From Acidimicrobiales bacterium (lineage in GTDB: Bacteria; Actinomycetota; Acidimicrobiia; Acidimicrobiales; JBBSGY01): a stretch of DNA of 64,000 bases. The stretch lies in the NCBI GenBank assembly GCA_044220495.1, contig JBGAQY010000010.1, positions 8,126-72,125 on the forward strand, given 5' to 3'. Position 1 is the first letter of the stretch. Each line of letters starts with the position of its first letter. Positions 1,457 to 55,806 of the stretch are shown piece by piece. Under the pieces are notes generated by a model. That model ran no database searches and was not told where the DNA came from. It saw nothing but the letters and a program-made list of their open reading frames with translations. The translations under genes and the position numbers were made by a program.

Positions 1457-1710
1457 CCGAACAATCGCAACCCGTCAGCCCAACTGAGCTGTCATACGAA
1501 GAAGCGGTCGCCGAACTCGAATCAATCGTGCACGACCTCGACATTGGCGTTATCAATGTCGACACACTCAGCGACCAGTTCCAACGCGCCATCGATATCG
1601 TCGAAGAACTCGACAGTCGCATCAATCGCACTCGAGACAAGATCAACGCACTCACCCCAAGACTCCAAGCAATCAGCGAACCAACAGGTTCAGCCGAGTC
1701 AGGGGAGTAG
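1453..1710 (+). CDS. xseB: Exodeoxyribonuclease VII small subunit
   Basis: 85-aa ORF with the typical XseB helical hairpin (SYEEAVAELESIV..L). Translationally coupled to xseA. Confidence 0.85.
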   Translation: MTEQSQPVSPTELSYEEAVAELESIVHDLDIGVINVDTLSDQFQRAIDIVEELDSRINRTRDKINALTPRLQAISEPTGSAESGE

Positions 1711-1760
1711 TCGCCAGCCTCCCAATCGCATGCGCCGACGTCGGCTCGTCTGACCTTTGC

Positions 1761-1830
1761 CTTTCACCTACCCAAGAAGCCCAACAATCGGCGTTTCTGG
1801 GCCCTGTTTTGGGCTTCTTGGGTGGGTGAA
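1761..1830. repeat. Palindromic intergenic element, copy a (TTTCACCTAC...GTGGGTGAAA)
   Basis: The 23-nt arms 1761-1783 and 1808-1830 are reverse complements with a single T:G position. The termini are shared with 7 other copies in the window. Confidence 0.85.
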
Positions 1831-1843
1831 AGAGGGTTTCGTT

Positions 1844-1911
1844 CTTTCAACCGCGCGATATGACCAAACACGGGCATGTTGGTTGCTGTTTTTGGCTATA
1901 TCGCGTGGTTG
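1844..1911. repeat. Palindromic intergenic element, copy b
   Basis: TTTCAACCGCGCGATATGACCAAA ... TTTGGCTATATCGCGTGGTTGA. Same family as the copies at 20988 and 54686, and directly adjacent to copy a. Confidence 0.8.
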
Positions 1912-1914
1912 ACA

Positions 1915-2038
1915 CGGCTCGCCCAGCGCCGTGGGCACCAGCTAGGTAAGTGAGCGAGAGTTTCGTGGCGGCTTGCCCAGCGCCGTGGGTACCAGTTGGT
2001 TAAGTAGACGAGTGGCTCGCCCAGCGCCGTGAGCACCA
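1915..2038. repeat. Three tandem copies of a 26-nt core GGCT(C/T)GCCCAGCGCCGTG(G/A)G(C/T)ACCAG
   Basis: Cores lie at 1915-1940, 1969-1994 and 2013-2038, separated by related spacers (..GGTAAGTGAGCGAG.. and ..GGTTAAGTAGACGAG..). Confidence 0.8.
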
Positions 2039-2058
2039 GCCCGCGATGACCGGTGGAG

Positions 2059-2301
2059 CTAGTCCTTCTCGATGAAGATGCACTCGCCAGGACACTCTTC
2101 GGCCGCCTCGATGACTGAGTCTTCGAGATCGGTCGGAACGGCAGCGAGACCAGCCGAGCCGCCAGGGTCGCTATAGACCTTGTCGGTGTCTTTCACGTAG
2201 GCGAGACCGTCGTCAAGCAGGGTGAACACGGCAGGAGCTATCTCTTCACAGAGACCATCACCGGTACACAGGTCTTGATCGATCCATACTTTCATCGCCA
2301 T
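2059..2301 (-). CDS. Small ferredoxin (single-cluster actinobacterial type)
   Basis: 80-aa ORF with motifs CTGDGLC ... ECPGECI, typical of 3Fe-4S/4Fe-4S ferredoxins. Confidence 0.8.
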
Positions 2302-2471
2302 TACGCGCCTTCACCTTCTTTCGCTTCCGCGATTTGTTCGGCTTCCCTTATGACTATACCGGCGCTCGGTCGGTTACCTGGTCAACCAAGAAAGCCAAAA
2401 GTTGGCAGCGAACAGGACGAACTTCCGTTCCTAACGACGGCTCCGGTGTTAAGTTCACCCCAAACAAGGGG

Positions 2472-4253
2472 GTGATTCCGCTGGCCGAGGCAGAGTCCAC
2501 ACGACGCTTGAACGAATACGAGAAAGAAGTCTCCGAACTTCGCGAACAAGCCAAAGTGCTTGAAGAGGAAGTCACGGGTCTTCGCCGTCGCGTCCAAGAC
2601 GCCCCCAAACGAGTCCGCACACTTGAAGAGAAGCTGCTCGAAACCAAGGGCCAGCTCGCCCAAGCGATCTCGCAAAACGAAAAGCTCACCTACACACTTC
2701 GCGAGGCGCGTGAGCACATCGCCGCTCTCCGCGACGAAGTCGACAAACTCACACAGCCTCCATCTGCCTACGGAACCTTCCTGAACAAGAATGACGACGG
2801 CACGGTCGACGTCTTGTCGGCGGGGCGCAAGATGCGAGTCGCCCTTCACCCCGAGCTCGAAAAAGACGAGCTGAGTCGCGGTGATGAAGTTGCCCTCAAC
2901 GAATCACTCAACGTCGTTCTTGCTCGCGCCGGTGAACGTCAGGGTGAAGTCGTTACCCTCAAAGAAGTTCTCGACGATGAGCGTCGCGCCATGGTTGTTG
3001 GTCGCGCTGATGAAGAGCGTGTTGTCGAGCTCGCCGAAAGCCTTATCGGCGTGAAGCTGCGCGCCGGCGACTCGTTGTTGATGGATCCTCGTTCCGGTCT
3101 TCTGCTCGAAAAGCTTCCACGTGCCGAAGTCGAGACATTGCTGCTCGAAGAAGTGCCCGACATTTCTTATGCAGATGTCGGCGGCCTCGACGACCAGATC
3201 GAAGCCATCACCGACGCAGTCGAGCTGCCGTTCTTGCACCGCGACTTGTTCAACGAATACAAGCTGCCAGCACCGAAAGGCATCTTGCTTTATGGCCCTC
3301 CCGGCTGTGGCAAGACCCTCATCGCCAAAGCAGTCGCCAACTCGCTCGCCAAAAAGGTCGGTGAGGTCAGCGGCGACAAGCAAGCACGTGCGTATTTCAT
3401 CAATATCAAGGGTCCGGAACTACTCAACAAGTATGTCGGTGAGACCGAACGGCAGATCCGCCTCGTCTTCGAACGCGCGCGCGAAAAGGCCGAAGAGGGC
3501 ATGCCTGTCATCGTCTTCTTCGACGAGATGGATTCGTTGTTCCGCACGCGTGGCACGGGTATTAGCTCTGACATGGAATCGACAATCGTTCCGCAGTTGC
3601 TTGCCGAGATCGACGGCGTCGAAGCGTTGCGCAACGTCATTGTCATTGGCGCATCGAATCGTGAAGACTTGATCGACCCCGCCATCCTTCGCCCCGGCCG
3701 CCTCGACGTGAAGATCAAGGTCGAACGTCCTGACGCGCCGGCCGCCGAGCAGATCTTCAGCCGTTACCTCACACCTGAATTGCCCATCGACGTGGCCGAG
3801 GTCAAGAAGTACGGCAAGGGCGACGCCAATAAGGCGTGCAAGGCAATCATCGAGAAGACCGTCGAAGCCATGTATGACACCGGCGATCAAAACCGCTTCA
3901 TCGAAGTCACCTATCAAAACGGCGATAAAGAAGTCATGTACTTCAAAGACTTCAGTTCTGGCGCCATGATCGAGAACATCGTCGCCAAGGCAAAGAAGTT
4001 TGGTGTGAAGCGCGAGATTTCGGGCGACGGCAAAGGCATCAAGCTCGATCACATGCTGCAGGCCGTGCGCGACGAGTTCCGTGAAAACGAAGACCTTCCG
4101 AACTCCACAAATCCTGACGACTGGGCCAAGATCTCGGGCAAGAAGGGCGAGCGCATCGTGTTCTTGCGAGTTCTCGTTCCGAAGGAAGACGACGAGGGCG
4201 AAGAATCCGGCGGCCGCGCTATCGAACGCGTCACCACCGGTCAGTACCTGTAG
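2472..4253 (+). CDS. arc: Proteasome-associated AAA ATPase Mpa/ARC
   Basis: N-terminal coiled coil, then QPPSAYG and OB-like regions. Walker A GPPGCGKT and Walker [10 protein letters not shown] are present, and the C-terminus ends GQYL. The ORF is open from TTG 2334. GTG 2472 is preferred because it gives a Mycobacterium-like length and leaves a divergent promoter gap, but the start is uncertain. Confidence 0.9.
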
Positions 4254-4381: not shown

Positions 4382-4459
4382 TTCGGCCGTAGGCGTGAAC
4401 TCGTTTTGGTTTCGGTCGATAGCCTCGGCGATCCTTTTGCACCGCTACCAGGAGCATTC

Positions 4460-6469
4460 ATGGGAATTCTCACCATTTCGCACGACGAAAACGGCACGAT
4501 CATCGAGGGCACCACCCGCAGCCTTGATGATCGTGGACTCGGCGAGGTGTTTCGTCCGCACGGCTTTGCATTTGATGAACAACGCAAAACATGGGTTCTG
4601 AGAGACAGCGTTGGTATTGAATTTCGACCCGAGCCCGTCGACCGCGTCATCGCCGCCCTCGAGCGAGTCAACCGCACTGCCGTCGTCGGCGACACGAACA
4701 ACGACAATTGCAACCCCGTGCCTGACGCAATACGCGAACGCGAGCAACGACTCCAACAGTTCTACGGCGGTGAACCTGCTGACGAAGTTGCTTTTAACAA
4801 GCATCGACTTGAATACATCGTTGAAAAGCTCGGCACCGCTCGCACGCGATTCGAAAAGGCCTGCCATGCTGCAATAAGTGACGTGCCGTCAGTCGACAGC
4901 ACTGCCCTCATTGACGGTGCCAGCGTTGTCGAGCGCCTAAGACTTGGAGCACACGTGAGTGTTGCTGGCCCGACTGGCGATCCACTGCCGCCGGTGTTCG
5001 TGCGATTTCGTGAACGCGATCGTGTCGAGATTGGCGAGGCTTGGCAGACGAAGTTCACGCTGGCGCTGCACGACGCTGACTTGTTTGAAGTTGTCTGCCC
5101 CGACTCGTTCCGCTATCTGGGCAACAAGAAACCGTCGCCGCCCATCACTTTCGTCGGGGAAGGCATCGAGTACAGCCCGCTTGCCTTAACCGAGGCGCGC
5201 GACGAACTCGAGCAGTGGCAGGCCGAACTCGTCTACGGCTTCACTATTCGCGGCTTCAAATTGTGGGGGAGTGACCACTTCAAAGACGGAGATGTCGTAT
5301 CGAAGACCGGAACCAGCGGCGTGTTGGTAGCGAGTGAAGGATCGATCAGAACCGACGGCCTGCGTCCTAAGAAGATCGTCGCCGGTAAAACGGGGATGCG
5401 CGTCGGGGGCTTCATCAGCACCACGCCCTGGCCTTACAAGAGCGTTGATTCGCTCAAGCGCAATGACCCCACGACCGGCGGCTCGATCGTGATGGTCGAA
5501 CCGCCCAGCCTCCCGAAGTGGATTAAAGAACTCGTCAATCGACACTGGCGACGCAACGGGTATGACGGATTTTCATTTGATGGCATCGCTGCGTCAAGAG
5601 CGCCAATCGCGATCGATAAGCCGGCCATCCCCAATCTGCAGGCAAAAACACCTCCCAAGAAGGTGGTCGAAGAGGTTCCGTCGTTTGGGCTTTTTGATCC
5701 TGAACCAGTTGCGGTAACCCCCGAACCCGAGGCGCCGACACCAACGCCCGCGCCTGCTGTCGCGACCACCGACGCAGCCAGCGTTGAGAGCCGACTCAAA
5801 GAGGCGCGTCTGCAGCTTGGTGACTTCATGATCACGATGGCCGCACAACTACGGGCCAGTGGCAACGAACGCGGCGCTGATGACTTTCTTCCGCTCATCG
5901 GAACGACTGAGAATCTGCGCAACCTTTTGCGCAGCGGCAAGCAAGTCCGCGTGTTTGTTCCTTCGCAGGGCAGCAGTGACGCCATAGATCACGGCACGCG
6001 CATCATCGGCGCAGTTACTCCAACAGAGTTCACAATTGTTAACGGGCGCCGTCCTCTCAAATTCAGCATTCCGCTCGACAGCGATCGGTTGTTGCTCGAA
6101 GGCCCTGACACGATCACCTTGCGTAACGCCGGGCGCGACGTGACGCTCACGTTGATCAGACCCGATGCGCTGCTCACAACAGAAGATCGCGAGCAGCTCG
6201 ATACGTTGCGCAGCGAGGTGCGCTCACTCGAAGCGACAATCGTCACAATGATCGACAACGGAGAGTTCGTGCCGAGCGATCCGGCCGAAATGCAGCCGCT
6301 CGTCGACCGTCATCGCTTGATACGCGAGCCCGCCCCGGTTGTGGCTGTCGTCGCGGCGACAGACGCGACCGAACTGGTTGCCACAGATGCGTCGAGCCCA
6401 GCGGCAACGCCCAGGCCAAGCGGGATTTCCGACAGACAAACATACCCACGCGTCGCATCGGCCAACTAG
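4460..6469 (+). CDS. Uncharacterised 669-aa protein with a DUF3560-like N-terminus
   Basis: ATG 4460 is preceded by AGGAG with about 5-nt spacing. The N-terminus MGILTISHDENGTIIEGTTRS resembles the DUF3560 opening (ITITHT..EGTL.EGTSRGDG). A Pro/Thr/Ala linker is encoded at about 5696-5780. The rest is not recognised. The stop lies 10 nt before the dop start. Confidence 0.6.
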   Translation: MGILTISHDENGTIIEGTTRSLDDRGLGEVFRPHGFAFDEQRKTWVLRDSVGIEFRPEPVDRVIAALERVNRTAVVGDTNNDNCNPVPDAIREREQRLQQFYGGEPADEVAFNKHRLEYIVEKLGTARTRFEKACHAAISDVPSVDSTALIDGASVVERLRLGAHVSVAGPTGDPLPPVFVRFRERDRVEIGEAWQTKFTLALHDADLFEVVCPDSFRYLGNKKPSPPITFVGEGIEYSPLALTEARDELEQWQAELVYGFTIRGFKLWGSDHFKDGDVVSKTGTSGVLVASEGSIRTDGLRPKKIVAGKTGMRVGGFISTTPWPYKSVDSLKRNDPTTGGSIVMVEPPSLPKWIKELVNRHWRRNGYDGFSFDGIAASRAPIAIDKPAIPNLQAKTPPKKVVEEVPSFGLFDPEPVAVTPEPEAPTPTPAPAVATTDAASVESRLKEARLQLGDFMITMAAQLRASGNERGADDFLPLIGTTENLRNLLRSGKQVRVFVPSQGSSDAIDHGTRIIGAVTPTEFTIVNGRRPLKFSIPLDSDRLLLEGPDTITLRNAGRDVTLTLIRPDALLTTEDREQLDTLRSEVRSLEATIVTMIDNGEFVPSDPAEMQPLVDRHRLIREPAPVVAVVAATDATELVATDASSPAATPRPSGISDRQTYPRVASAN

Positions 6470-6479
6470 GGTCGATGGC

Positions 6480-7970
6480 GTGGCCATTCGCAAGATCTGC
6501 GGTATCGAAACCGAGTACGGCATTGTCCAGCGGGGCGCGGGCGAGTCAAACCCCATCACAGCGTCGTCGGTGCTCATCAATGCCTACGTTGCTTCGCTCG
6601 CGCGTCGAGTCGCGTGGGACTTTGAAGACGAATCGCCCGGCAACGACGCTCGTGGTTTTGCTCGAGAGGGTGCGTTGCCGCCCGAGATCGAAACACACCT
6701 AGTCAATGCAGTTCTCACAAACGGCGCGCGCTATTACGTCGACCACGCGCACCCCGAATACTCCAGCCCCGAGTGCGGCAATGCGTTAGAGGCGGTGCTT
6801 TACGACCGCGCTGGCGAACAAATTCTCATCGAGTCGATGGATGCTGCGTCAAAATCCATGCCCGGTGCCGAACACATCGTTGTTTACAAGAACAACAGTG
6901 ATGGCAAAGGCAACTCATACGGCACGCACGAAAACTATTTGATGGACCGCGACATTCCGTTCAATCGAATCGTGCAACACGTCATGCCGCACTTCGTCAC
7001 GCGTCAGATCTATACGGGCGCCGGCAAGGTCGGCACCGAAGCTGACACCGGCAAACAAGAGGTTCCGTTTCAGCTGACGGCGCGCGCTGATTTCTTCGAA
7101 GAAGAAGTCGGCCTTGAGACAACGCTAAAGCGCCCAATTATCAATACGCGCGATGAGCCGCACGGCGACGCTCGCAAATACCGCCGTCTGCACGTGATTG
7201 TCGGTGACGCCAACATGAGCGAAGTGTCGACGTTCTTGAAGCTCGGCACAACAACGTTCGTGCTGGCGATGATCGAAGATGACCGCTTGAGTGATCTCGA
7301 CTTTGCGATGGTTGCGCCCGTGAGTGAAATCCGCCAGATCAGCTACGACTTGACACTGTCTAGGCAGATTCAACTTCGCAACGGCAAACAGTTGACTGCA
7401 CTTGAAATGCAGTGGGAATACTTCGATCGTGCTCGCAAATACGCAGATGACATCGGCCTTGAATGTATTGGTGACGAAGAAGTCGGTAAACAAATTCTCA
7501 CCCGGTGGGAGCAAGTTCTGATCGGTCTCGAATCAGATCCCATGACACTTGCTAATCAGCTCGACTGGGTGGCCAAGTATCAACTGCTTGATGCCTATCG
7601 TGAACGCCATGGCCTTGATTGGAAGAACGCCAAGCTTGCTGCGATGGACTTGCAGTACCACGACATCCGTCCAGAAAAGTCGCTGTTTGCACGACTGCCA
7701 ATCGAGAAACTCGTGACGCCGGCTGCCGTTGTCGCAGCAGTTAGCGAGCCTCCGCGTGACACAAGAGCGTATTTTCGAGGAAAATGTTTACAGAAATGGG
7801 GAAACTCCATTGCTGCTGCGAACTGGGACTCCATAGTTTTCGATCTAGGTACAGACCCGCTTCGCAGAATTCCAATGATGGATCCCTTAAGAGGAACAGC
7901 CGATGGTGTCGATGCACTAATCGAGCGATGCGATACACCTGCTCAGTTGATCGAACAGCTGGGCGCATAG
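6480..7970 (+). CDS. dop: Pup deamidase/depupylase Dop
   Basis: Opening (I)CGIETEYGI, then YVDHAHPEYSSPEC and GNSYGTHENYL (carboxylate-amine ligase fold). Located immediately upstream of pup. GTG 6480 is chosen; the ORF-track start at 6339 would overlap the upstream gene by 130 nt. Confidence 0.9.
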   Translation: MAIRKICGIETEYGIVQRGAGESNPITASSVLINAYVASLARRVAWDFEDESPGNDARGFAREGALPPEIETHLVNAVLTNGARYYVDHAHPEYSSPECGNALEAVLYDRAGEQILIESMDAASKSMPGAEHIVVYKNNSDGKGNSYGTHENYLMDRDIPFNRIVQHVMPHFVTRQIYTGAGKVGTEADTGKQEVPFQLTARADFFEEEVGLETTLKRPIINTRDEPHGDARKYRRLHVIVGDANMSEVSTFLKLGTTTFVLAMIEDDRLSDLDFAMVAPVSEIRQISYDLTLSRQIQLRNGKQLTALEMQWEYFDRARKYADDIGLECIGDEEVGKQILTRWEQVLIGLESDPMTLANQLDWVAKYQLLDAYRERHGLDWKNAKLAAMDLQYHDIRPEKSLFARLPIEKLVTPAAVVAAVSEPPRDTRAYFRGKCLQKWGNSIAAANWDSIVFDLGTDPLRRIPMMDPLRGTADGVDALIERCDTPAQLIEQLGA

Positions 7971-7982
7971 GAGAACGAACCA

Positions 7983-8180
7983 ATGGCTGAACGAGAACAA
8001 ATCAAGAAGTCATCTTCCAAGAAGGGCGAGACCGAAGTTGAAGACGTCGCGCCTGCGTCCACCGAGAAGGGCGAAAAGCTCAAAGAAGAAATGGACGACC
8101 TGCTCGACGAGATCGACGAAGTGCTCGAGGTGAATGCCGAAGAGTTCGTCAAGTCCTACGTGCAAAAGGGCGGACAGTAG
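7983..8180 (+). CDS. pup: Prokaryotic ubiquitin-like protein Pup
   Basis: 65-aa acidic, disordered ORF with helical DDLLDEIDEVLE and a C-terminal GGQ. RBS GGAGAA lies upstream. Confidence 0.95.
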   Translation: MAEREQIKKSSSKKGETEVEDVAPASTEKGEKLKEEMDDLLDEIDEVLEVNAEEFVKSYVQKGGQ

Positions 8181-8189
8181 AGTCGTGCT

Positions 8190-9272
8190 GTGCACGTCTC
8201 TATTTGCCACCCAAAAGAGCTAGGGCCGGCAGAGCGAGCCTCTTGGTCTGCATTTCAGGCCGACAGCGACCAGCTTGATAGTGCGTTTCTGAGCTACGAA
8301 TTTGCTGAGGTTGTTGGCCGTCACAACGACAACGCGCGCGTGGCCGTTATCGCTGACGGCGCGCAAACAGTCGGCTTCTTTGCTTACGAACTTGAGGGCG
8401 GGCGACTGGCTCGGCCAATCGGCGCAGGGTTCTCTGACGTGCAAGGCGTCGTGCACAGTCAGGCGTTCCAACTCAACCTGCGTGAACTCTTGAACGCATG
8501 CAACATTGCGATGTTTGAGTTTGATCACCTGATAACCACTCAAGCAACGCAACCTGGCGTGCATGCGCGCAACCATGATTCGCCGGTGCTCGATGTTACG
8601 GGCGGTTACGACGCCTACATGGAGCGCGACGATCGCGTTAACCGTAAGTCGGTCAAGGGTTTCATGCGCAAGCAGCGCAATCTCGAACGCGACAACGGTC
8701 AATGCTCGCTCGAATTCGACAGTCACGATGGTGACGCGCTGCAACAAGTAATGGCGTGGAAGTCTGACCAATATCGCCGCACGGGCTTTGCTGACATCTT
8801 CGCCAAGCCCGAGATGCGCGCCGTTGTTGAAGACCTCGCGTTAGTCGAATCACCAGACTTGACAGGTCGGCTCTCGGTGTTGAAAACCGGCGACCAACAA
8901 ATTGCTATTCACTTCGGCCTTCAGTCGCGTCGCACACTGGCGTTGTGGTTTCCGGCCTATGACCCGCAATTCGGCAAATACTCGCCGGGCATCACCTTGC
9001 TGCTCGAGATAGCGAAGGCGTCAACTGACTACGGCTTCAGATACATGGACCTCGGCAAGGGTGACGAGAGCTACAAGCAGTCGTTCAAGAGTTTCGATCA
9101 TTCAGTATCCAGCGGGTGGATCGGTGGTTTAAACGCCACAACGGTTTTGCGACGCGCCCGCAAAGCGCCCGTCGAGCGCGCCGAGCAGTTCGTTCTCGAC
9201 AACCCCAAGTTGCGCGCCGCGGCGCGCAAGACGCTCCGCACTGTCGGCAAAATTCGCCAACGCAACAAGTGA
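8190..9272 (+). CDS. CelD/BioF2-like GNAT-fold acyltransferase (Acetyltransf_6-like)
   Basis: 360 aa. The C-terminal half (WFPAYDPQFGKYSPGITLLLEIAK..GFRYMDLGKGDESYKQSF) matches my recollection of the CelD/FemAB-related GNAT signature (ydp...k.sPG..L....i......G...fDfg.G.e.YK). Confidence 0.65.
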   Translation: MHVSICHPKELGPAERASWSAFQADSDQLDSAFLSYEFAEVVGRHNDNARVAVIADGAQTVGFFAYELEGGRLARPIGAGFSDVQGVVHSQAFQLNLRELLNACNIAMFEFDHLITTQATQPGVHARNHDSPVLDVTGGYDAYMERDDRVNRKSVKGFMRKQRNLERDNGQCSLEFDSHDGDALQQVMAWKSDQYRRTGFADIFAKPEMRAVVEDLALVESPDLTGRLSVLKTGDQQIAIHFGLQSRRTLALWFPAYDPQFGKYSPGITLLLEIAKASTDYGFRYMDLGKGDESYKQSFKSFDHSVSSGWIGGLNATTVLRRARKAPVERAEQFVLDNPKLRAAARKTLRTVGKIRQRNK

Positions 9273-9299
9273 CATGACAACGATCGTTGGCTCAGCAAG

Positions 9300-9944
9300 G
9301 TGACACCAAGAATTCGTCTGACATTCCCCTGGGAATTTGTCGACAATTACTGGCGCTGGGTAGCCTCAGACCTCGTGCCACCAGCAGGACTGAAACTAAG
9401 GCTCCTTGAGGCGGGTCGCGAACAAGAAGCTGCCTCTGACGATGTGTGGGGTTTGATCTCAGCGCTCGATCGTGAATTCGTACCAAGTCTCTCTTCGCGA
9501 ACCGACACAACCGAGCATGACCTCACCAAAGAAACCATTTGGGGTGGCCCGATCTCGTTCTACGACACGGTGATGAAAGAGCGAATCATCCTCGCCACTG
9601 TTGACGACAAAGTCGTTGGGATCATGACGTTCATTCCGCACTACGAAGAAGAGATGTTGGCAAAGTGGTCGCCGTCGACTTATGCGTCGACAACCGGCAT
9701 CTTGCCGGCCTACCGTCGACTAGGTATCGCCAAAGCCCTAAACGATGCGCTCGAAACATTGCCACCCGATTTGGCAAGCCCATGGATTACACGTCGTACG
9801 TGGTCAACAAACGTTGCCAACCTCACGCTGCTGAAGTCACGCAACTTCGAAGAAGTCATCCGCCTGAAAGACCACCGCGGCCCGGGCATCGACACCATCT
9901 ACCTAGCTCGCCGCACCTACCAAGACGAGGCCGTCGGCGACTAA
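9300..9944 (+). CDS. GNAT family N-acetyltransferase
   Basis: 214 aa. The acetyl-CoA-binding-like segment ILPAYRRLGIAKAL follows a beta strand (ILATVDDKVVGIMTF). GTG start. Confidence 0.6.
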   Translation: MTPRIRLTFPWEFVDNYWRWVASDLVPPAGLKLRLLEAGREQEAASDDVWGLISALDREFVPSLSSRTDTTEHDLTKETIWGGPISFYDTVMKERIILATVDDKVVGIMTFIPHYEEEMLAKWSPSTYASTTGILPAYRRLGIAKALNDALETLPPDLASPWITRRTWSTNVANLTLLKSRNFEEVIRLKDHRGPGIDTIYLARRTYQDEAVGD

Positions 9945-9960
9945 CCGCCATAGGTCGCCC

Positions 9961-10098
9961 GGCGACCGTCAACGCAGCAATGGCCCTATTGGCGCGTGGT
10001 GGAAGCGGTGCCAATAGGCGTCAGTGCAAGGCGACGGGCGGTGAGGTTTACGAGGGTAAATGAGGCGACCGTCAACGCAGCAATGGCCCTATTGGCGC
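9961..10098. repeat. Perfect 35-nt direct repeat pair (9961-9995 and 10064-10098)
   Basis: GGCGACCGTCAACGCAGCAATGGCCCTATTGGCGC occurs twice, 103 nt apart. An inverted CCTATTGGC/GCCAATAGG hairpin lies between the copies. Located in the GNAT-prcB intergenic gap. Confidence 0.9.
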
Positions 10099-10135
10099 CC
10101 GCTTACGTTGGGGCCCGGGTAGCATCGCAGTCCTA

Positions 10136-10942
10136 ATGAATCTGCCGATGTTTTCACCCCACGACAGCCCTGGCTCAAACTTCTCTGAGCTGCTGCGACG
10201 CATAGGCCTAGACCCGAGCGAACGCATGACAAAGGCGCAAGCATCTGACGCTCTGATTGCGCCGCATGCAACGACCATCATTGCCCTCACCTATGCAGAT
10301 GGCGTGATGATGGCAAGCGACCGGCGCGCAACGATGGGGCACACGATCTCTGATCGCAACATCGAGAAGGTGCACCCCGCCGACAAGTACTCCGGCATCT
10401 CGATCTCGGGGTCGGCGGCCTTCGGCATGGAAATGATTCGTGCATTCCAACTCAACCTCGAGCACTACGAAAAGATCGAGGGCAAGCACTTGAGCATGGA
10501 GGGCAAGGCCAACCAGCTGAGCGGCATGATTCGCGCCAACCTTGGCATGGCCATGCAAGGTTTCGTCGTTGCACCAATCTTTGCTGGCTTCGACCTCAAC
10601 CGAGGTGTTGGTCGCATCTTTGCTTACGACGTTCTTGGCGGACGATCAGAAAAAGACGACTTTCACGCTGATGGTTCGGGCAGCCGCATAGCAGGCCCGA
10701 TCATCAAGGTCGGGTGGAAGCCCGGCATGAACCTTGAAGACACGATCGAGCTCGGCATTTCATCGCTCTACGAAGCCGCCGACGACGATGCAGCGACTGG
10801 TGGCCCCGACGTAATTCGTGGCATCTATCCAATGGTCGCGACAATCACCGAGAACGGCTACGCCCGCGTGCCTGACGACGAAGTTGCCACACGCTTTGCG
10901 GCTCTCATTGCTCGCAAGACCGAACAAGGACACCGCCCATGA
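10136..10942 (+). CDS. prcB: 20S proteasome beta subunit
   Basis: Propeptide followed by the TTIIAL catalytic-Thr motif, then SDRRAT and GSGS motifs. Overlaps the prcA start. Confidence 0.9.
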   Translation: MNLPMFSPHDSPGSNFSELLRRIGLDPSERMTKAQASDALIAPHATTIIALTYADGVMMASDRRATMGHTISDRNIEKVHPADKYSGISISGSAAFGMEMIRAFQLNLEHYEKIEGKHLSMEGKANQLSGMIRANLGMAMQGFVVAPIFAGFDLNRGVGRIFAYDVLGGRSEKDDFHADGSGSRIAGPIIKVGWKPGMNLEDTIELGISSLYEAADDDAATGGPDVIRGIYPMVATITENGYARVPDDEVATRFAALIARKTEQGHRP

Positions 10943-11637
10943 GCATGCCGTTTTACGTAGCACCTGAGCAATTGATGAAAGACAAGGCTGACTACGCGCG
11001 CAAGGGCATTGCTCGTGGTCGCTCGTTGGTTGCGGTTTTGTATGCAGATGGCATTCTCATCGCTGCCGAAAATCCTTCGCGTACGTTGCACAAGGTCAAC
11101 GAAATTTACGACCGCATCGCGTTTGCTGGCGTGGGCAAGTTCAATGAGTACGACCAGTTGCGCCAAGCCGGTGTTCGTCACGCCGACATCAAGGGCTACA
11201 CCTACTCGCGTGAAGATGTCGACGCACGTTCACTTGCCAACGCGTACGCGCAGTCGATCGGCCAAGTGTTTACACACGACATGAAGCCGCTCGAAATCGA
11301 GATCTTGGTCGCCGAAGTCGGTTTCTTGGCTAGCGGAGATCAGCTGTATCACATCACTTACGACGGCACCGTTATGGACGAAACGCGCTTCAGCGTTCTT
11401 GGCGGTGAGGCCGAGGCGATCGGCGAACGTCTCGAAGAGACCTTTGAAGAATCGATGGACTTCGTAACGACGTTGAAGGTCGCTGTCGACGCGCTGCAAG
11501 GCGAAGTCACCGACGACGATGATCGCTTGCTGCCCGACGAACTAGAGGTTGCCGTGCTCGATCGAACGGCAAGCCGGCGAACTTTCCGTCGAGTTCCGCG
11601 AGCCGAGCTGGCAACGCTGCTCGAAGACGAATCCTGA
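10939..11637 (+). CDS. prcA: 20S proteasome alpha subunit
   Basis: MSMPFYVAPEQLMKDKADYARKGIARGRS is a typical bacterial PrcA N-terminus. ATGA overlap with prcB. Confidence 0.9.
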   Translation: MSMPFYVAPEQLMKDKADYARKGIARGRSLVAVLYADGILIAAENPSRTLHKVNEIYDRIAFAGVGKFNEYDQLRQAGVRHADIKGYTYSREDVDARSLANAYAQSIGQVFTHDMKPLEIEILVAEVGFLASGDQLYHITYDGTVMDETRFSVLGGEAEAIGERLEETFEESMDFVTTLKVAVDALQGEVTDDDDRLLPDELEVAVLDRTASRRTFRRVPRAELATLLEDES

Positions 11638-11654
11638 TCGCGTAACAAGACACT

Positions 11655-13013
11655 GTGGACCGCCGCATTTTTGGCCTCGAAAACGAATACGGCGTCACAT
11701 GCACGCTCAAAGGACAGCGGCGCCTAAGCCCCGACGAAGTTGCGCGCTACTTGTTTAGGCGGGTGGTGAGTTGGGGCCGTTCGTCGAACGTCTTCCTCGA
11801 AAACGGCGCTCGTCTCTATCTCGATGTCGGCAGTCATCCTGAATATGCGACGCCTGAATGTGACAATCCACTCGACTTGGTAACGCACGACAAGGCCGGC
11901 GAACGCATCCTCGAAGGTTTGCAATTGTCAGCCGAACAACGTCTGGCCGAAGAAGGCATCAGGGGAGTGGTGTACCTCTTCAAAAACAACACCGACTCGG
12001 CGGGCAACTCATATGGATGCCACGAGAACTACTTAACAAGTCGACGCGATGACTTTGCTCACTACAGCGAGATATTGATCCCTTACTTTGTGACGCGTCA
12101 GATTTGGGCCGGTGCCGGCAAGGTTTTTCAGACGGCTCGGGGTGCGACTTACTGCTTGAGTCAACGCGCTGAACACATTTGGGAAGGTGTGTCGTCAGCA
12201 ACGACCCGTAGTCGTCCGATCATCAACACGCGCGATGAACCGCACGCAGACGCCGAAAAATATCGACGCCTACACGTCATTGTCGGCGACTCCAACATGA
12301 GCGAATACACGACGTATTTGAAGATCGGCGCAACGAGCATCGTTCTGCGCATGCTCGAAGACCCAGAAACGAAGATGAAAGACCTCACGATGGAGAACCC
12401 GATCAGGGCTATCCGTGAGATCAGCCACGACCTCACCTGTAAGCGCAAGGTGCGCCTAGCCAGCGGACGTGAGATGACGGCACTCGACGTGCAAAGCGAA
12501 TATCTCGAACGCGCGCTTGAATATCGCGATCGCGTTGGCCTCGACCAGTATGAGACCAAAGCTCTCGAAATGTGGGAGCACGTGTTGACAAATCTGAATG
12601 ACGATCCGTTCAAACTCGATCGCGAGTGCGACTGGGTCATCAAACACAAGTTGGTCGAGTCATACCGAACGCGTCATGAGGTCACGCTCAATTCGCCACA
12701 AGTTGCCCTGCTCGATTTGCAGTATCACGACATCAATCGCGAACGCAGCCTCTATTACAAGATGCAAGACAAGGGCATGCTCGAGCGTGTCACAACTGAT
12801 GAGGCGATTCAGAAGGCAATTGACGAGCCTCCGCAAACAACGCGTGCGCGCTTGCGCGGTGAGTTCATCAAGGCAGCAAAAGAAAAACGTCGCGACTTCA
12901 CCGTCGACTGGGTGCACCTAAAGATCAACGACAACGCGCAACGTACCGTTCTGTGTAAAGACCCCTTCAAGTCGCAAGATGATCGAGTCAAGAAGCTGAT
13001 CGAAAGTCTTTAG
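11655..13013 (+). CDS. pafA: Pup-protein ligase PafA
   Basis: [30 protein letters not shown] and [12 protein letters not shown] paralog of dop that lacks the Dop-specific insertion. Confidence 0.9.
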
Positions 13014-13015
13014 CG

Positions 13016-14056
13016 GTGCCCGGTTTTCAGACGGCAACTGTGGCTCAGATCACGGTCGAACGCGTTGGATTGCAGCGTCTTGTCGTCGCCATGCCTGACG
13101 GCGAGCACAGTGCTGCCTACGCGCTTACTGAGATCATTGGGCCCGTTGCAGTGGGCGACAGCGTGATCGTCAACACAACGGCTGTCGACCTTGACCTCGG
13201 CACTGGTGGCTCACACGTCGTGCATTGGAATCTCGCTCGTGACAGCTGGCAGCGCCAGGGCCCAGGCCACGTGATGAAGGCGCGCTACACGAGCGAGCAA
13301 CTTGATGCCGGCGTCTACGAAGAAGCCGCCGACTATCAAGCTCCGATCAGTCTCGATGGCACGCCAGTAATCGTGTGCTTGCTGCACAGTCAGATGGTTG
13401 CTGCTGCGGTTGCGATCAAGCATCTGCAGCCTGACGCGCGCGTTGGTTACGTGATGACCGATCAAGCCAGTTTGCCGGCGGCAATCTCTGACGTCTTGCA
13501 TGAATTGCGCGATCGACAGTTGGTCGACTTCACCGTTACTGCCGGCCAGGCATTCGGCGGTGATCACGAGGCAGTCAATACAACCTCGGCACTGGGCGTT
13601 GCGCGACATCTTGGAGCCGACATCATCATCGTGAGCCAAGGCCCAGGCGTCGTCGGAACCGACACGCGACTCGGCTTTAGCGGGCTCGAAGCAGCTGAGA
13701 TCCTCACCAGCGCTCAGCGCTACGGCGGCCAGCCGTTGTTAGCGCTGCGATGGTCTGACGCAGATGCACGCCCACGCCACCGAGGCATGAGTCACCACAG
13801 CACAACGGTTCTAGAGCGCACCGCAGTCTCCGTAGACGTGGCCATCCCCGCGAGTCGTGCGGATGAGGTCACACGCGTCGGTGATCACCGCTTCACTCAG
13901 CTAGGCGACATCGATATTGCCAAGTTGTTCGACACTCACGACCTTCGCGTGACTTCAATGGGTCGTTCGGCGAGCCAAGACCCCGGTTTCTTCGAATTTT
14001 CCGCAGCAGCCGGCTCACTTGCCGTTCGTCTAGCGCCACACCTTGGCAGCAGGTGA
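13016..14056 (+). CDS. DUF3866-like conserved hypothetical protein
   Basis: 346 aa. VNTTAVDLDLGTGGSHVV matches the remembered DUF3866 signature (NTTAv.LgLGTGG). The GTG start is 2 nt after the pafA stop. Confidence 0.6.
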   Translation: MPGFQTATVAQITVERVGLQRLVVAMPDGEHSAAYALTEIIGPVAVGDSVIVNTTAVDLDLGTGGSHVVHWNLARDSWQRQGPGHVMKARYTSEQLDAGVYEEAADYQAPISLDGTPVIVCLLHSQMVAAAVAIKHLQPDARVGYVMTDQASLPAAISDVLHELRDRQLVDFTVTAGQAFGGDHEAVNTTSALGVARHLGADIIIVSQGPGVVGTDTRLGFSGLEAAEILTSAQRYGGQPLLALRWSDADARPRHRGMSHHSTTVLERTAVSVDVAIPASRADEVTRVGDHRFTQLGDIDIAKLFDTHDLRVTSMGRSASQDPGFFEFSAAAGSLAVRLAPHLGSR

Positions 14057-14075: not shown

Positions 14076-14990
14076 ATGTCCCGCCTGGAACGCCTGGTCA
14101 ACCTGTTAACGGCCCTAACCGAAACAGAGCGACCCCTAAGTCGAAGCGACCTTCATCGTCGCGTTCCTGGTTATGCGTCGGAACAGACTGCCTTTCGTCG
14201 GGCCTTCGAACGCGATAAGGAAACCTTGCGGTCAATGGGCGTGCCCATTCAGACCATGCCGTTAGATCCTGAATTTCCCGAACACGGCGACGGCTATCGC
14301 GTCTTGAAAGACGAGTACTTCTTGCCCGACCCTGGTCTCACCCACGAAGAGATGTCGGCTCTGGCAATCGCTGCATCAGCGGTAAAACTAAAGAGTCAAT
14401 CGGCAACAGCCGCTCTGTGGCGCCTTGGTGGCGATGTCATCGACGTGACTACAACCGAAGACGTCGAACTGCCTGAGAGCGATGAGCTGTCGATCGTGTT
14501 TGCCGCGCGACGCGAACGCCGGCGCATAACGTTTTCCTACAAGGGCACCGAGCGTCAGCTCGATCCATATCGTCTTACCTTCCGTAACGGTCGTTGGTAT
14601 GTGAACGGATTCGACCACGGCCACGGCGATGTGCGCACCTATCGCCTCGATCGCATGGGCGGCGCCATTACCGCCGGCGATGCCGACTCATTTCCGGCAC
14701 CTGCGCGGGTCGACCAACCATGGCTGCCGGCGTGGCAGATGGGTGACGGCACGCCCGTCGAGACGCGCGTTTATATAGACGCCTCGCAAGCCGACCTCGC
14801 CATCGACCAAGCTGGCGAGAACTGCATCGAAGAGCGACGCCCCGACGGCGGCGTTGTGCTGCGGATGATGGTCACAAATCAAGAAGCGTTTCGTTCTTTT
14901 GTGCTCGGCTTTCTAGAGCACGCCGAGATCCTTACGCCTGCCGACGCCCGTCAGGCGATGATCGACTATCTCGAAGCGGTGGTCGCGTGA
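14076..14990 (+). CDS. pafB: Proteasome accessory factor B (HTH-WYL regulator)
   Basis: N-terminal winged HTH (RLERLVNLLTALTETERPLSRSDL), then a WYL-like core (GRWYVNGFDHGHGDVRTYRLDRM). Overlaps pafC. Confidence 0.8.
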   Translation: MSRLERLVNLLTALTETERPLSRSDLHRRVPGYASEQTAFRRAFERDKETLRSMGVPIQTMPLDPEFPEHGDGYRVLKDEYFLPDPGLTHEEMSALAIAASAVKLKSQSATAALWRLGGDVIDVTTTEDVELPESDELSIVFAARRERRRITFSYKGTERQLDPYRLTFRNGRWYVNGFDHGHGDVRTYRLDRMGGAITAGDADSFPAPARVDQPWLPAWQMGDGTPVETRVYIDASQADLAIDQAGENCIEERRPDGGVVLRMMVTNQEAFRSFVLGFLEHAEILTPADARQAMIDYLEAVVA

Positions 14991-15931
14991 CGCAAGAAAC
15001 CGCCGATGCGCGCCTGCAGCGGCTCTTGGTGATGATCCCGTGGGTCACACAACACGACGGCCCTACTGTCGAGCAGGTATGCACGCGCTTTTCGATCACC
15101 GAGGCCGACCTCGCCGCCGATCTAGAACTCTTGTTTATGTGCGGGCTCTATCCGTTTACGCCTGACGCTTTGATAGAAGCCGACATCGTCGACGGCCGGG
15201 TATGGATTCGTTTTGCCGATTCGTTTGAACGTCCGCCGACCTTCACTCGTGAAGAAGCAGTGAGCATTCTTGCCGCCGCTGCCGCAGTGTCAGAGCTACC
15301 GCAAAACGAGGCAAACGACGCACTGAAGAGTGCCTTGCGCAAACTTGCTCGCGCGCTTGGCATTGATGACGACGACGTAGTTGCCGTTGAGCTCGCACCC
15401 ACCAAGCCCGACGTTCTTGATCTCACGCGTCAAGCGGCCAACGAGCATCGACTAATCGAACTCGACTATTACTCAAACGGACGCGACGCATGGTCGCGTC
15501 GCGAAGTCGAGATCTACCGCACGTTCAATCGCGACGGCCAGTGGTATGTGCAAGGTCGAGCGCCTGAGGCCGATGAAGTGCGCACGTTCCGCATCGACCG
15601 CATGCGCAACGTTGCTCTGCTCGACGAACGGTTTCAACCGTCAACCGAACTGCCCGAACCGCAAACATTTGCGGCGCGCCCCACTGATCCAACAGTGACC
15701 CTTGCGTTAGCGCCAAACGCACGGTGGGTGAGTGAGCAGTATCCGACCGAGCACGTCGAGACGCGAGACGACGGAACGTTGTTGGTCACCCTCAAGGTCA
15801 GCGAAGAAGTCTGGCTGCAACGTCTACTGCTGCGCCTCGGCGCGTCAGCAACTGTCGTCGAGGGCGCTGTCGATGTCACCGCCACTGCCCAACGAATCCT
15901 CAACCAATACCAAGAAGGCGCATCTAAATGA
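14987..15931 (+). CDS. pafC: Proteasome accessory factor C (HTH-WYL regulator)
   Basis: A pafB paralog with RLQRLLVMIPWV and GQWYVQGRAPEADEVRTFRIDRM. GTGA overlap with pafB. Confidence 0.8.
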   Translation: MTQETADARLQRLLVMIPWVTQHDGPTVEQVCTRFSITEADLAADLELLFMCGLYPFTPDALIEADIVDGRVWIRFADSFERPPTFTREEAVSILAAAAAVSELPQNEANDALKSALRKLARALGIDDDDVVAVELAPTKPDVLDLTRQAANEHRLIELDYYSNGRDAWSRREVEIYRTFNRDGQWYVQGRAPEADEVRTFRIDRMRNVALLDERFQPSTELPEPQTFAARPTDPTVTLALAPNARWVSEQYPTEHVETRDDGTLLVTLKVSEEVWLQRLLLRLGASATVVEGAVDVTATAQRILNQYQEGASK

Positions 15932-16554
15932 GTGAAAAGTCCAGAACTTCAAGGCTCTTTACGCGGCGCGCTATCAACAAAGAGGAAAAGGCCAAGGCGG
16001 CTGAGGCGGCCGAGCTAAAGACCGCCCGGCGTCTCGAAAACCATGGCCTGGGCGAATGGATCGGCATTTTGCTGGCTGCTCTCGTCGCCGCGTTGCTGAT
16101 CCGTCAATACGTATTTCAGTCGTTCTGGATTCCATCTGCATCGATGGAAAACACGATGCACATCGGCGACCGAGTTTTGGTCAACAAGGTGTCTTATCGG
16201 GTGGGCGACGTCCACAGGGGCGACATCGTCGTGTTCAAAACTCCGCCGGCTGAGGCCGACAAGAACATCAAAGACCTGATCAAGCGGGTCGTTGCCGTCC
16301 CCGGAGACACGATTGAGGCCCGTAGCGGCGAGGTCTACATAAATGGCGAGAAGCTGGTCGAGCCCTACGTGAAAGACAACGAACCGACCCTCAGCTTGCC
16401 CCCGACGAAGATTGGGCCCAACCTTTACTTCGTCATGGGGGACAATCGCACCAACTCATCAGACAGCCGTGTCTTTGGTCCCATCAACAAAGACCTGATT
16501 GTCGGCAAAACCAGCTTCCGGGTCTGGCCCTTGTCGAGACTGGAAACTTTCTAA
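15928..16554 (+). CDS. lepB: Signal peptidase I
   Basis: One TM segment, catalytic-Ser box IPSASMENT, then DLIKRVVAVPGD and the GDNRTNSSDSR box. ATGA overlap with the pafC stop. Confidence 0.85.
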   Translation: MSEKSRTSRLFTRRAINKEEKAKAAEAAELKTARRLENHGLGEWIGILLAALVAALLIRQYVFQSFWIPSASMENTMHIGDRVLVNKVSYRVGDVHRGDIVVFKTPPAEADKNIKDLIKRVVAVPGDTIEARSGEVYINGEKLVEPYVKDNEPTLSLPPTKIGPNLYFVMGDNRTNSSDSRVFGPINKDLIVGKTSFRVWPLSRLETF

Positions 16555-16557
16555 CCG

Positions 16558-55731: not shown

Positions 55732-55806
55732 TCGGGCTGACAGGATTTGAACCTGCGACCCCCGGTCCCCCAGACCGGTGCGCTAACCAAGCTGCGCCAC
55801 AGCCCG
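55732..55806 (-). tRNA. tRNA-Pro (anticodon GGG)
   Basis: 75-nt cloverleaf folded by hand: acceptor CGGGCTG/CAGCCCG, D stem GCGC/GCGC, anticodon stem CCGGT/ACCGG with loop CTGGGGG, T arm GCAGG-TTCAAAT-CCTGT, discriminator A. CCA is not encoded. Confidence 0.9.

Follow-up and report, generated by a model that had tools for sequence, protein, structure and literature searches.

Two acyltransferase-family genes between pup and prcB in a Pup-proteasome locus of Acidimicrobiales

The Pup-proteasome locus and its pup-prcB interval

The analysed window, a stretch of 64 kb from an Acidimicrobiales bacterium, held all core genes of the Pup-proteasome locus in canonical order and on one strand. The gene order was dop, pup, ORF-A, GNAT-B, prcB, prcA and pafA, and the following features were assigned:

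6471..7970, + strand: dop, depupylase/deamidase (Pfam Pup_ligase, 1.2e-167 for 6474-7970)
7983..8180, + strand: pup, 65 aa (Pfam Pup, 2e-21; TIGR03687, 1.3e-19)
8190..9272, + strand: ORF-A, predicted tandem-GNAT, Fem-fold transferase of the PF13480 (CelD/BcsL) type, 360 aa (PF13480, 5.4e-32)
9375..9944, + strand: GNAT-B, putative acetyltransferase of the small GNAT type, 189 aa with the probable GTG start at 9375 (PF00583, 5.2e-5)
9961..9995, + strand: copy 1 of a perfect 35-nt direct repeat in the spacer from GNAT-B to prcB (repeat search, family D1)
10064..10098, + strand: copy 2 of the 35-nt direct repeat, pairing with an inverted partial copy at about 10005-10025
10136..10942, + strand: prcB, 20S proteasome beta subunit with propeptide (Pfam Proteasome, 2.7e-36)
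10939..11637, + strand: prcA, 20S proteasome alpha subunit (76-79% identity to PrcA of L005, L007, L097 and L101)
11655..13013, + strand: pafA, Pup ligase (82-84% identity to PafA of the relatives)

The reading frame of dop was open from 6339, with a probable start at about 6471-6480, and its product aligned from residue 1-3 with Dop of the related loci L005, L007, L097 and L101 at 71-79% identity. Pup ended in GGQ and shared 72-83% identity with its counterparts in the relatives. Its N-terminus was Lys-rich, and the protein contained 9 Lys and, as stated in the original prediction, the segments KKSSSKKGE and EKGEKLKEE. Pup of the clade as a whole held 7-9 Lys. PrcB was fully covered (100%) by homologues of 267-268 aa, and the closest PrcB among the relatives, with 86% identity, was encoded in the P0158 locus. 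The N-termini of PrcA (MSMPFYVAPEQ) and Pup (MAEREQIKK...) were near-invariant across five loci.

Core order and strand were shared with the canonical actinobacterial locus of Mycobacterium and Streptomyces (arc/mpa ... dop-pup-prcB-prcA ... pafA-pafB-pafC). The premise of the original prediction that pup normally abuts prcB was confirmed by the canonical arrangement (PMC3511204) and by the P0158 locus, in which prcB followed pup with no gene between them. In contrast, the window and four relatives carried a GNAT gene between pup and prcB, and the window additionally carried a PF13480 gene. The census of pup loci comprised six metagenomic loci, namely the window, L005, L007, L097, L101 and the P0158 locus, the last of which was assessed from its gene map. 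Full-text literature searches yielded no description of GNAT or PF13480 genes between pup and prcB, and literature on pup-linked acetyltransferases, enzymes of acetylation/pupylation cross-talk, pupylation in Acidimicrobiia and PF13480 contained nothing specific.

The contents of the pup-prcB interval varied, with ORF-A in the window, an antisense asparaginase gene in L005 and a duplication of GNAT-B in L097; the spacer appears to tolerate insertions. The codon usage of ORF-A and GNAT-B matched that of the host. A signal of horizontal transfer was rejected for both genes, as GC, GC3 and synonymous-codon likelihood fell inside the span of values seen in neighbouring genes. Both are real genes and not chance ORFs, with many homologues, confident structural models and host-like codon usage. 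PADLOC matched neither of them to a defence family. For the 35-nt repeat, two matches were found against 0.00 expected, and the RNA fold at the repeat region, listed with copy 2, reached -90.3 kcal/mol (z = -2.47). The repeat was rejected as a dispersed element, since further copies were absent from the window as well as from 101 loci. A promoter and terminator scan of positions 7900-10250 gave counts at chance level, so that no internal terminator or promoter can be claimed. Rfam identified one tRNA in the whole window, at 55732-55806, and nothing at the pup locus.

ORF-A, a tandem-GNAT protein with DegT-paired homologues

ORF-A opened with a GTG at 8190, leaving a gap of 9 nt behind the pup stop, which ends at 8180. 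It encoded the 360-aa protein with the motif YDPQFGKYSPG...GFRYMDLGKGDESYKQSF that had been described in the original prediction. The start at 8190 is supported by the homologues, which align from residue 1, and the intact frame kept every family-invariant residue. Against PF13480 (Acetyltransf_6), the protein scored 111.3 bits with a cutoff of 22 (E = 5.4e-32) over profile positions 5-143 of 143. This was the only Pfam family matched at E <= 0.1, FemAB being absent, and the NCBIfam search returned just a sub-threshold match to BspF (15 bits, cutoff 775). The AlphaFold model (pLDDT 91.6) found its best Foldseek matches in FemX (1xf8, 1ne9, 7z6a), the aminoacyl-PG synthase domain of MprF and Sbb17/Sba18, with E = 4e-10 to 1e-8, a probability of 1.0 and TM-scores of 0.50-0.65. 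The tandem-GNAT fold is thus common to the model and these Fem-type transferases, which include FemX of Weissella, whereas detectable sequence similarity to solved structures was lacking, with zero matches to PDB sequences in single-sequence and profile searches, and the Pfam family was PF13480 and not FemAB. Together, the PF13480 match and the Fem-like model bear out the predicted CelD-like GNAT fold with a relationship to Fem enzymes. Sbb17/Sba18 aminoacylate the amino sugar streptothrisamine, and the family context of ORF-A likewise points to an amino-sugar amine as the acceptor.

In a search of 5.8 billion proteins, the best homologue of ORF-A was 46% identical, compared with 69% for GNAT-B and 86% for PrcB. 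No homologue was present in the other five pup loci (L005, L007, L097, L101 and the P0158 locus) or in any of the 96 GNAT-B loci (0/96). Among 100 loci screened, ORF-A matches were confined to the 4 loci fetched with ORF-A homologues. An orthologous DegT/DnrJ/EryC1 aminotransferase was encoded directly downstream of the ORF-A homologue in 5/5 independent contexts, and some homologues were located among glycosyltransferases, a polysaccharide deacetylase and a flippase. ORF-A shares with the CelD/BcsL-type acetyltransferases of polysaccharide loci the strong PF13480 match and the name that source databases give to its homologues (CelD/BcsL family). In contrast to those loci, the gene of the window lies in a proteolysis operon without a DegT, glycosyltransferase or flippase neighbour, and tblastn detected no DegT within the 64-kb window. 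That the homologues were always found next to a DegT-type sugar aminotransferase gene suggests that the acceptor amine belongs to a small molecule or glycan. ORF-A is an insertion specific to the lineage of the window and probably derived from an amino-sugar gene pair. As far as sampled, its linkage to pup was unique and its homologues were DegT-paired, which speaks against the part of the original prediction that concerned ORF-A.

GNAT-B, a small GNAT protein upstream of prcB

The frame of GNAT-B was open from a first GTG at 9300, which yields the 214 aa (9300-9944) given in the original prediction. Homologues measured 180-197 aa and their alignment began at about residue 26 of this frame, and residues 5-22 were disordered in the model, so that the start is probably the GTG at 9375. 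The second gene was confirmed as a GNAT, with its length revised to a probable 189 aa. Its match to PF00583 was weak (23.9 bits, cutoff 20.7, E = 5.2e-5); both Pfam families named in the prediction, PF13480 and PF00583, were thus matched above cutoff. The NCBIfam search gave no match. The acetyl-CoA motif R/Q-x-x-G-x-G/A was present as YRRLGIA, with R invariant and G nearly invariant in the family, and the intact frame retained every invariant family residue.

The AlphaFold model (pLDDT 85.8) had 675 PDB GNAT matches at E <= 0.001 in Foldseek. In profile searches against solved structures, Naa30 (1e-7) and archaeal Ard1 (1.5e-7) ranked first, followed by AAC(6') at 5e-6. The best profile matches were N-terminal protein acetyltransferases (RimI, Ard1, Naa10, Naa30, Naa50 and Naa60; 1e-7 to 1e-3), which at about 160-190 aa are similar in size to GNAT-B; GNAT-B also has an R-x-x-G-x-A motif. 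However, identity to these enzymes was 13-22%, and phosphinothricin, aminoglycoside and unknown GNATs were equal by fold. In the Foldseek ranking, N-terminal acetyltransferases were intermixed with phosphinothricin acetyltransferases and unknown GNATs.

GNAT-B was located directly upstream of prcB in 5/6 related Acidimicrobiia pup loci (window, L005, L007, L097 and L101), on the shared strand and with gaps to prcB of 49-191 nt. The orthologues in the pup-prcB interval of the four relatives showed 40-69% identity, and L097 held two tandem copies. Adjacency to prcB was kept even where insertions part GNAT-B from pup, as in the window and L005. GNAT-B is the clade's resident of the pup-prcB spacer, always immediately upstream of prcB. 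The conserved linkage that the original prediction calls for was therefore seen for GNAT-B and not for ORF-A, which was found in 0/5 other loci. The adjacency to prcB in 5/5 GNAT-B-bearing loci exceeds the order that a neutral hitch-hiker needs. GNAT-B was missing from the P0158 locus, and the same clade has three members (52-58% identity) outside pup loci, with infB, sigma factor or Mur ligase genes as neighbours.

The acceptor-loop motifs EFVPSLSxR, RTWSTN and DHRGPGxDTxY were conserved at >= 85-95% in 96 sequences, including those of gut Firmicutes and Methanosarcinales, with equal conservation in Firmicutes and archaea devoid of Pup. Homologues with the same motifs occurred in Faecousia, Oscillospiraceae, Aquibacillus, Methanosarcinales and Halobellus and were not restricted to Pup organisms. 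A homologous SAM methyltransferase was encoded directly upstream of the GNAT-B homologue in 20/63 loci with enough upstream DNA. Neighbour clustering of the distant GNAT-B loci identified no proteolysis-related partner, the methyltransferase being the only one. Conservation of these motifs without Pup makes it most likely that GNAT-B acts on a molecule or protein terminus also present outside actinobacteria. A Pup-specific role is unlikely because of this conservation, the absence of GNAT-B beside the closest PrcB and the clade members found elsewhere.

Probable separate origins and possible functions of the two genes

The preferred reading, given a probability of about 0.55, is that the pup-prcB interval holds two unrelated acyltransferase genes of separate origin and not a dedicated Pup-acylation module. 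GNAT-B would be an acetyl-CoA-dependent N-acetyltransferase of an uncharacterised GNAT subfamily, which may simply be co-expressed with prcBA here. ORF-A, a Fem-fold tandem-GNAT transferase according to its model, would form an amide bond on a primary amine, with an aminoacyl-tRNA or an acyl-CoA as the likely donor. The partnership of its family with a DegT-type aminotransferase makes an amino-sugar-type amine the probable acceptor. A partnerless copy of the gene would have landed 9 nt behind pup in one lineage, in agreement with the uniqueness of the insertion among the pup loci, and it is probably co-transcribed with dop-pup. ORF-A may also have gained a new acceptor, because the gene is intact, its invariant residues are kept and the DegT partner is lost.

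That GNAT-B serves the proteasome, for instance by acetylating the N-termini of proteasome subunits, is a minority possibility. In the fullest form of this reading, GNAT-B would be a protein N-acetyltransferase that acts, for example, on the alpha-amino group of PrcA, at its gate-forming N-terminus, on that of Pup or on lysines and thereby tunes 20S gating, assembly or pupylation. This is tentative, and the evidence points in both directions. The position upstream of prcB in 5/6 loci of the clade with shared strand and short gaps, the persistence of this adjacency despite insertions, the tandem duplication in L097 and the near-invariant N-termini of PrcA and Pup in five loci are consistent with it. 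So are the top profile matches to Naa30, Ard1, Naa60 and RimI-type enzymes, of which Ard1 and Naa60 also ranked high in Foldseek. There is precedent in the 20S alpha subunits of archaea and eukaryotes, which are N-alpha-acetylated (PMC2910475). However, Firmicutes, although devoid of both Pup and a 20S proteasome, conserve the acceptor-loop motifs just as well, and the commonest partner of the family elsewhere is a methyltransferase. The relative with the closest PrcB lacks GNAT-B, and members of the clade occur outside pup loci. Divergence is also much more rapid in GNAT-B (40-69% identity) than in the proteins of the Pup-proteasome system (69-84%), and the fold search cannot separate N-terminal from phosphinothricin or aminoglycoside acetyltransferases. 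The wider proposal, that the operon of this Acidimicrobiia clade recruited a dedicated GNAT-B to N-acetylate a proteasome component or Pup, with the N-terminus of PrcA or the Lys-rich one of Pup as candidates, and that ORF-A as a Fem-fold aminoacyl/acyl transferase adds a second, newly acquired modifying activity in the lineage of the window, is doubtful.

Decay of one or both genes into passengers without function is quite improbable. ORF-A is orphaned from its partner, and GNAT-B is patchy in the clade and fast-evolving, but both frames are intact, with invariant residues kept, confident models and host codon usage. The original prediction, in which both enzymes act as one module of acylation/pupylation cross-talk, modifying Pup or blocking target lysines, fares slightly worse and is very unlikely. 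In its favour, the pup-prcB interval contains both genes in the same orientation with short spacers (9 and 102 nt), each gene is from a superfamily of amine-acylating enzymes, and the Pup of the clade is Lys-rich. Nevertheless, they never occurred together elsewhere in the 100 loci screened, ORF-A was found among pup loci in the window alone, its family partner is a DegT aminotransferase, and relatives without ORF-A have the same Lys-rich Pup N-terminus. As ORF-A and GNAT-B are unrelated in history, the joint module does not hold as stated. L/F-transferase and ATE1 have a Fem-like fold. The least probable reading is that ORF-A has newly become an aminoacyl-tRNA-protein transferase that extends protein N-termini or Pup and so makes or alters degradation signals: the Fem-like fold, whose best structural matches are enzymes that depend on aminoacyl-tRNA, the lost DegT partner, the identity of at most 46% to relatives and the position 9 nt after pup would fit, but a single occurrence without conservation, the lack of a sequence match to solved transferases and the amino-sugar chemistry of the family context argue against it.

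Should the proteasome or Pup prove to be the target of GNAT-B, acetylation and regulated proteolysis would be linked in bacteria. A bacterial proteasome would then for the first time be shown to be under a genetically hard-wired control by acetylation, which would parallel the N-alpha-acetylation of 20S subunits in archaea and eukaryotes, a connection testable with one small enzyme and defined peptides. If not, the locus would be a documented case of operon position misleading functional inference. It would then flag two widespread uncharacterised pairs, a PF13480 transferase with a DegT aminotransferase and a small GNAT with a Tam-like methyltransferase.

Organisation of the Pup-proteasome locus

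The region was a complete Pup-proteasome locus encoded entirely on the + strand. PrcB placed the organism in the Acidimicrobiia, being approximately 60% identical to NCBI-named PrcB homologues of Acidimicrobiales and Acidimicrobiaceae.

Genes of the Pup-proteasome locus (positions, strand, feature)
2334-4253, +, arc/mpa, AAA plus proteasomal ATPase OB domains
4406-6469, +, unknown 687-aa ORF, no Pfam or NCBIfam match
about 6471-7970, +, dop, Pup_ligase family (1.2e-167)
7983-8180, +, pup, 65 aa with GGQ end, Pfam Pup 2e-21
8190-9272, +, ORF-A, 360 aa
9300-9944, +, GNAT-B, 214-aa ORF
9945-10135, GNAT-B-prcB spacer, 191 nt
10136-10942, +, prcB
10939-11637, +, prcA
11655-13013, +, pafA
13016-14056, +, DUF3866 gene
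14076-14990 and 14987-15931, +, ORFs matching the WYL-domain (PafB/PafC-type) genes of L007, another Acidimicrobiia pup locus

Normally, pup is located directly upstream of prcB (PMC3511204). A GNAT inside a pup-prcBA operon was not found described in the searchable literature. As the original prediction had stated, ORF-A started 9 nt past the pup stop codon, the motifs YDPQFGKYSPG and GFRYMDLGKGDESYKQSF were present and Pup was Lys-rich. Because the spacers are short and the strand is the same, ORF-A and GNAT-B probably form part of one transcript with the Pup-proteasome genes around them; consensus promoter and terminator scans gave counts at chance level here.

With a probability of approximately 0.55, a small GNAT is resident in the pup-prcB spacer of this clade, the spacer tolerates insertions, and ORF-A and GNAT-B are unrelated in origin and function and form no Pup-acylation module. 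Further insertions in this spacer were ORF-A in the window, an antisense asparaginase gene in L005 and a duplication of GNAT-B in L097.

The 687-aa ORF had a Pro/Ala/Thr-rich central linker, and the arc-dop position held different, likewise unannotated genes in L097 and L101. DHFR and ThyA genes (minus strand) were located between prcA and pafA in L007 (3270-4718), L097 (9614-11032) and L101 (10716-12144). They were absent from this position in the window, which instead encoded, approximately 12 kb downstream (25028-26656), a ThyX-domain protein of 542 aa that is extended at its N-terminus by a long stretch. Two consecutive signal-peptidase-I-like ORFs (15928-18198) hardly differed in their C-terminal catalytic domains; the second carried a Pro/Gly/Gln-rich N-terminal extension of approximately 340 aa in a region of 64-66% GC.

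GNAT-B and its conserved position upstream of prcB

Homologues of GNAT-B comprised 180-197 aa, their alignment with the 214-aa ORF beginning near residue 26, and the first 22 or so residues of the model were disordered. Translation therefore probably starts at the GTG at 9375, for a protein of 189 aa. The PF00583 match was weak. GNAT-B fell into a well-defined, uncharacterised subfamily, for which a profile search (E <= 1e-30) gave 335 clusters at 50% identity, with the sharply conserved motifs W..L...D.EFVPSLSSR, FIPHY, WSPSTY, YRRxGIA (the acetyl-CoA motif), TRRTWSTN and DHRGPGxDTIY.

The census was based on six metagenomic pup loci. GNAT-B was present in five, including four whose PrcB and Dop were 69-81% and 71-79% identical to those of the window.

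GNAT-B in the related pup loci (identity to GNAT-B, arrangement, position of pup)
L005, 69%, dop-pup-(asparaginase, minus strand)-GNAT-B-prcB-prcA, pup 1169-1366
L007, 67%, dop-pup-GNAT-B-prcB-prcA, pup 785-982
L097, 52% and 43%, tandem pair of paralogues (6792-7942) flanked by pup and prcB, pup 6586-6783
L101, 40%, dop-pup-GNAT-B-prcB-prcA, pup 8163-8363

The P0158 locus, with the closest PrcB (86%), had prcB 70 nt after pup and no insert on its gene map; upstream of pup it carried two successive Pup_ligase-family genes (542 and 495 aa). In L005, the antisense L-asparaginase gene (1371-2402, minus strand) splits pup transcriptionally from GNAT-B-prcBA. Pup ended in GGQ in the window, L007 and L101 and in GGE in L005 and L097. 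Given the established role of Dop, the need for deamidation would then differ between close relatives.

Gaps between GNAT-B and prcB were 49-191 nt over the five loci, with 191 nt in the window versus 49-95 nt in relatives. In the window spacer, a 35-nt sequence occurred twice in direct orientation without mismatch (9961-9995 and 10064-10098), with a partial inverted copy in between, and the predicted RNA structure of the spacer was -90.3 kcal/mol (z = -2.47). No further copy of the repeat was present across the window or 101 loci; it may be the scar of a duplication or may serve to regulate prcBA.

The main alternative, considered unlikely, is that GNAT-B was co-opted to acetylate protein targets, either proteasome subunits or Pup. 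It is consistent with the position of GNAT-B next to prcB in 5/5 loci, even with a gene inserted after pup (window, L005). The N-termini of Pup (MAEREQIKK[KS][AS][TS]KKGE) and PrcA (MSMPFYVAPEQ or MSMSGFYVAPEQ) were almost invariant in these loci, and 20S alpha subunits are N-alpha-acetylated in archaea and eukaryotes (PMC2910475). The best matches of the family profile to solved structures were N-terminal protein acetyltransferases (Naa30, 1e-7; Sulfolobus Ard1, 1.5e-7), followed by Naa60, Naa50, Naa20 and RimI with AAC(6') close behind, which hints at a protein substrate. The fold search did not discriminate, with unknown GNATs, phosphinothricin acetyltransferases and N-terminal acetyltransferases interleaved.

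Against a Pup-specific substrate stands the conservation of the putative acceptor site. Family conservation peaked around EFVPSLSxR and at the C-terminal DHRGPGxDTxY, which, from GNAT-fold knowledge and the secondary-structure order of the model, we take to be the alpha1-alpha2 and beta6-beta7 loops shaping this site. Across 96 sequences, some of them from Firmicutes and archaea, conservation of both motifs reached at least 85-95%, so an acceptor confined to Pup-bearing actinobacteria is unlikely. The proposed reaction of GNAT-B is the acetylation, with acetyl-CoA as donor, of an amine that Pup-less organisms also possess.

The genomic contexts also argue against Pup specificity. Outside the Acidimicrobiia clade, the recurrent partner was a Tam-like SAM methyltransferase, whose gene immediately preceded that of the GNAT-B homologue in 20 of the 63 loci with enough upstream DNA and likewise on a Halobellus plasmid (pairs in L008, L009, L013, L018-L022, L025, L026, L029-L031, L034, L051, L058, L060, L061, L066, L068 and L104). 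This conserved two-gene pair spanned Firmicutes, Micromonospora and a haloarchaeal plasmid. In many cases the methyltransferase was fused to a P-loop NTPase of KAP type, and this NTPase matched mad2 and the defence models PifA, PDC-S20 and QatA; the methyltransferase was absent from the window and all Acidimicrobiia-clade loci. Three same-clade GNAT-B (52-58% identity) adjoined unrelated genes, namely Mur ligase genes (L006), infB (L098/L099) and a sigma factor (L100), and were interspersed with pup-linked copies in a neighbour-joining tree without support values. No pup or proteasome gene was present in 90 more distant loci, including gut Firmicutes, Micromonospora, Aquibacillus and Methanosarcinales. 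The balance of evidence points away from a Pup-specific function.

ORF-A, a transferase without its DegT partner

ORF-A was a clear PF13480 member (5.4e-32), and its AlphaFold model (pLDDT 91.6) showed a tandem-GNAT fold. Sequence-level similarity to solved structures was not found. The best structural matches were FemX, the MprF aminoacyl-phosphatidylglycerol synthase domain and Sbb17/Sba18, which are aminoacyl-tRNA-dependent peptide synthases with structures bound to the amino sugar streptothrisamine. Among 5.8 billion proteins, the nearest was only 46% identical, compared with 69% for GNAT-B and 86% for PrcB; close relatives are therefore sampled but lack an ORF-A orthologue. In codon usage and GC the insertion matched the host, and its composition is therefore not foreign.

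Homologues were examined in five independent contexts across Actinomycetota: L001/L002, L003 and L004 (metagenomic), L102 (Streptomyces sp. KN37 plasmid, pair at 7001-9365) and L103 (Nonomuraea gerenzanensis, 7001-9141). In all five, an orthologous DegT/DnrJ/EryC1 aminotransferase (45-63% mutual identity) followed directly downstream. Glycosyltransferases, a polysaccharide deacetylase and a flippase were nearby in some contexts. L003 and L004 shared a conserved gene of approximately 450 aa without Pfam match directly upstream of the pair. No DegT homologue occurred anywhere in the 64-kb window; ORF-A is a lineage-specific transferase copy without its DegT partner. The acceptor of the family would be an amine made by a DegT-type enzyme, and ORF-A may form an amide bond onto an amino-sugar-type amine with aminoacyl-tRNA or acyl-CoA as donor.

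The joint acylation/pupylation module of ORF-A and GNAT-B in the original prediction was not borne out and is highly improbable, as the two genes are unrelated in origin, ORF-A homologues pair with DegT and ORF-A was in no other pup locus examined. An N-degron role based on ORF-A is just as improbable.

ORF-A and GNAT-B each add a new member to a known superfamily. With a conserved GNAT inside pup-prcBA, the operon represents a variant Pup-proteasome locus, and the synteny of this GNAT with prcB is real, conserved and cheap to test.
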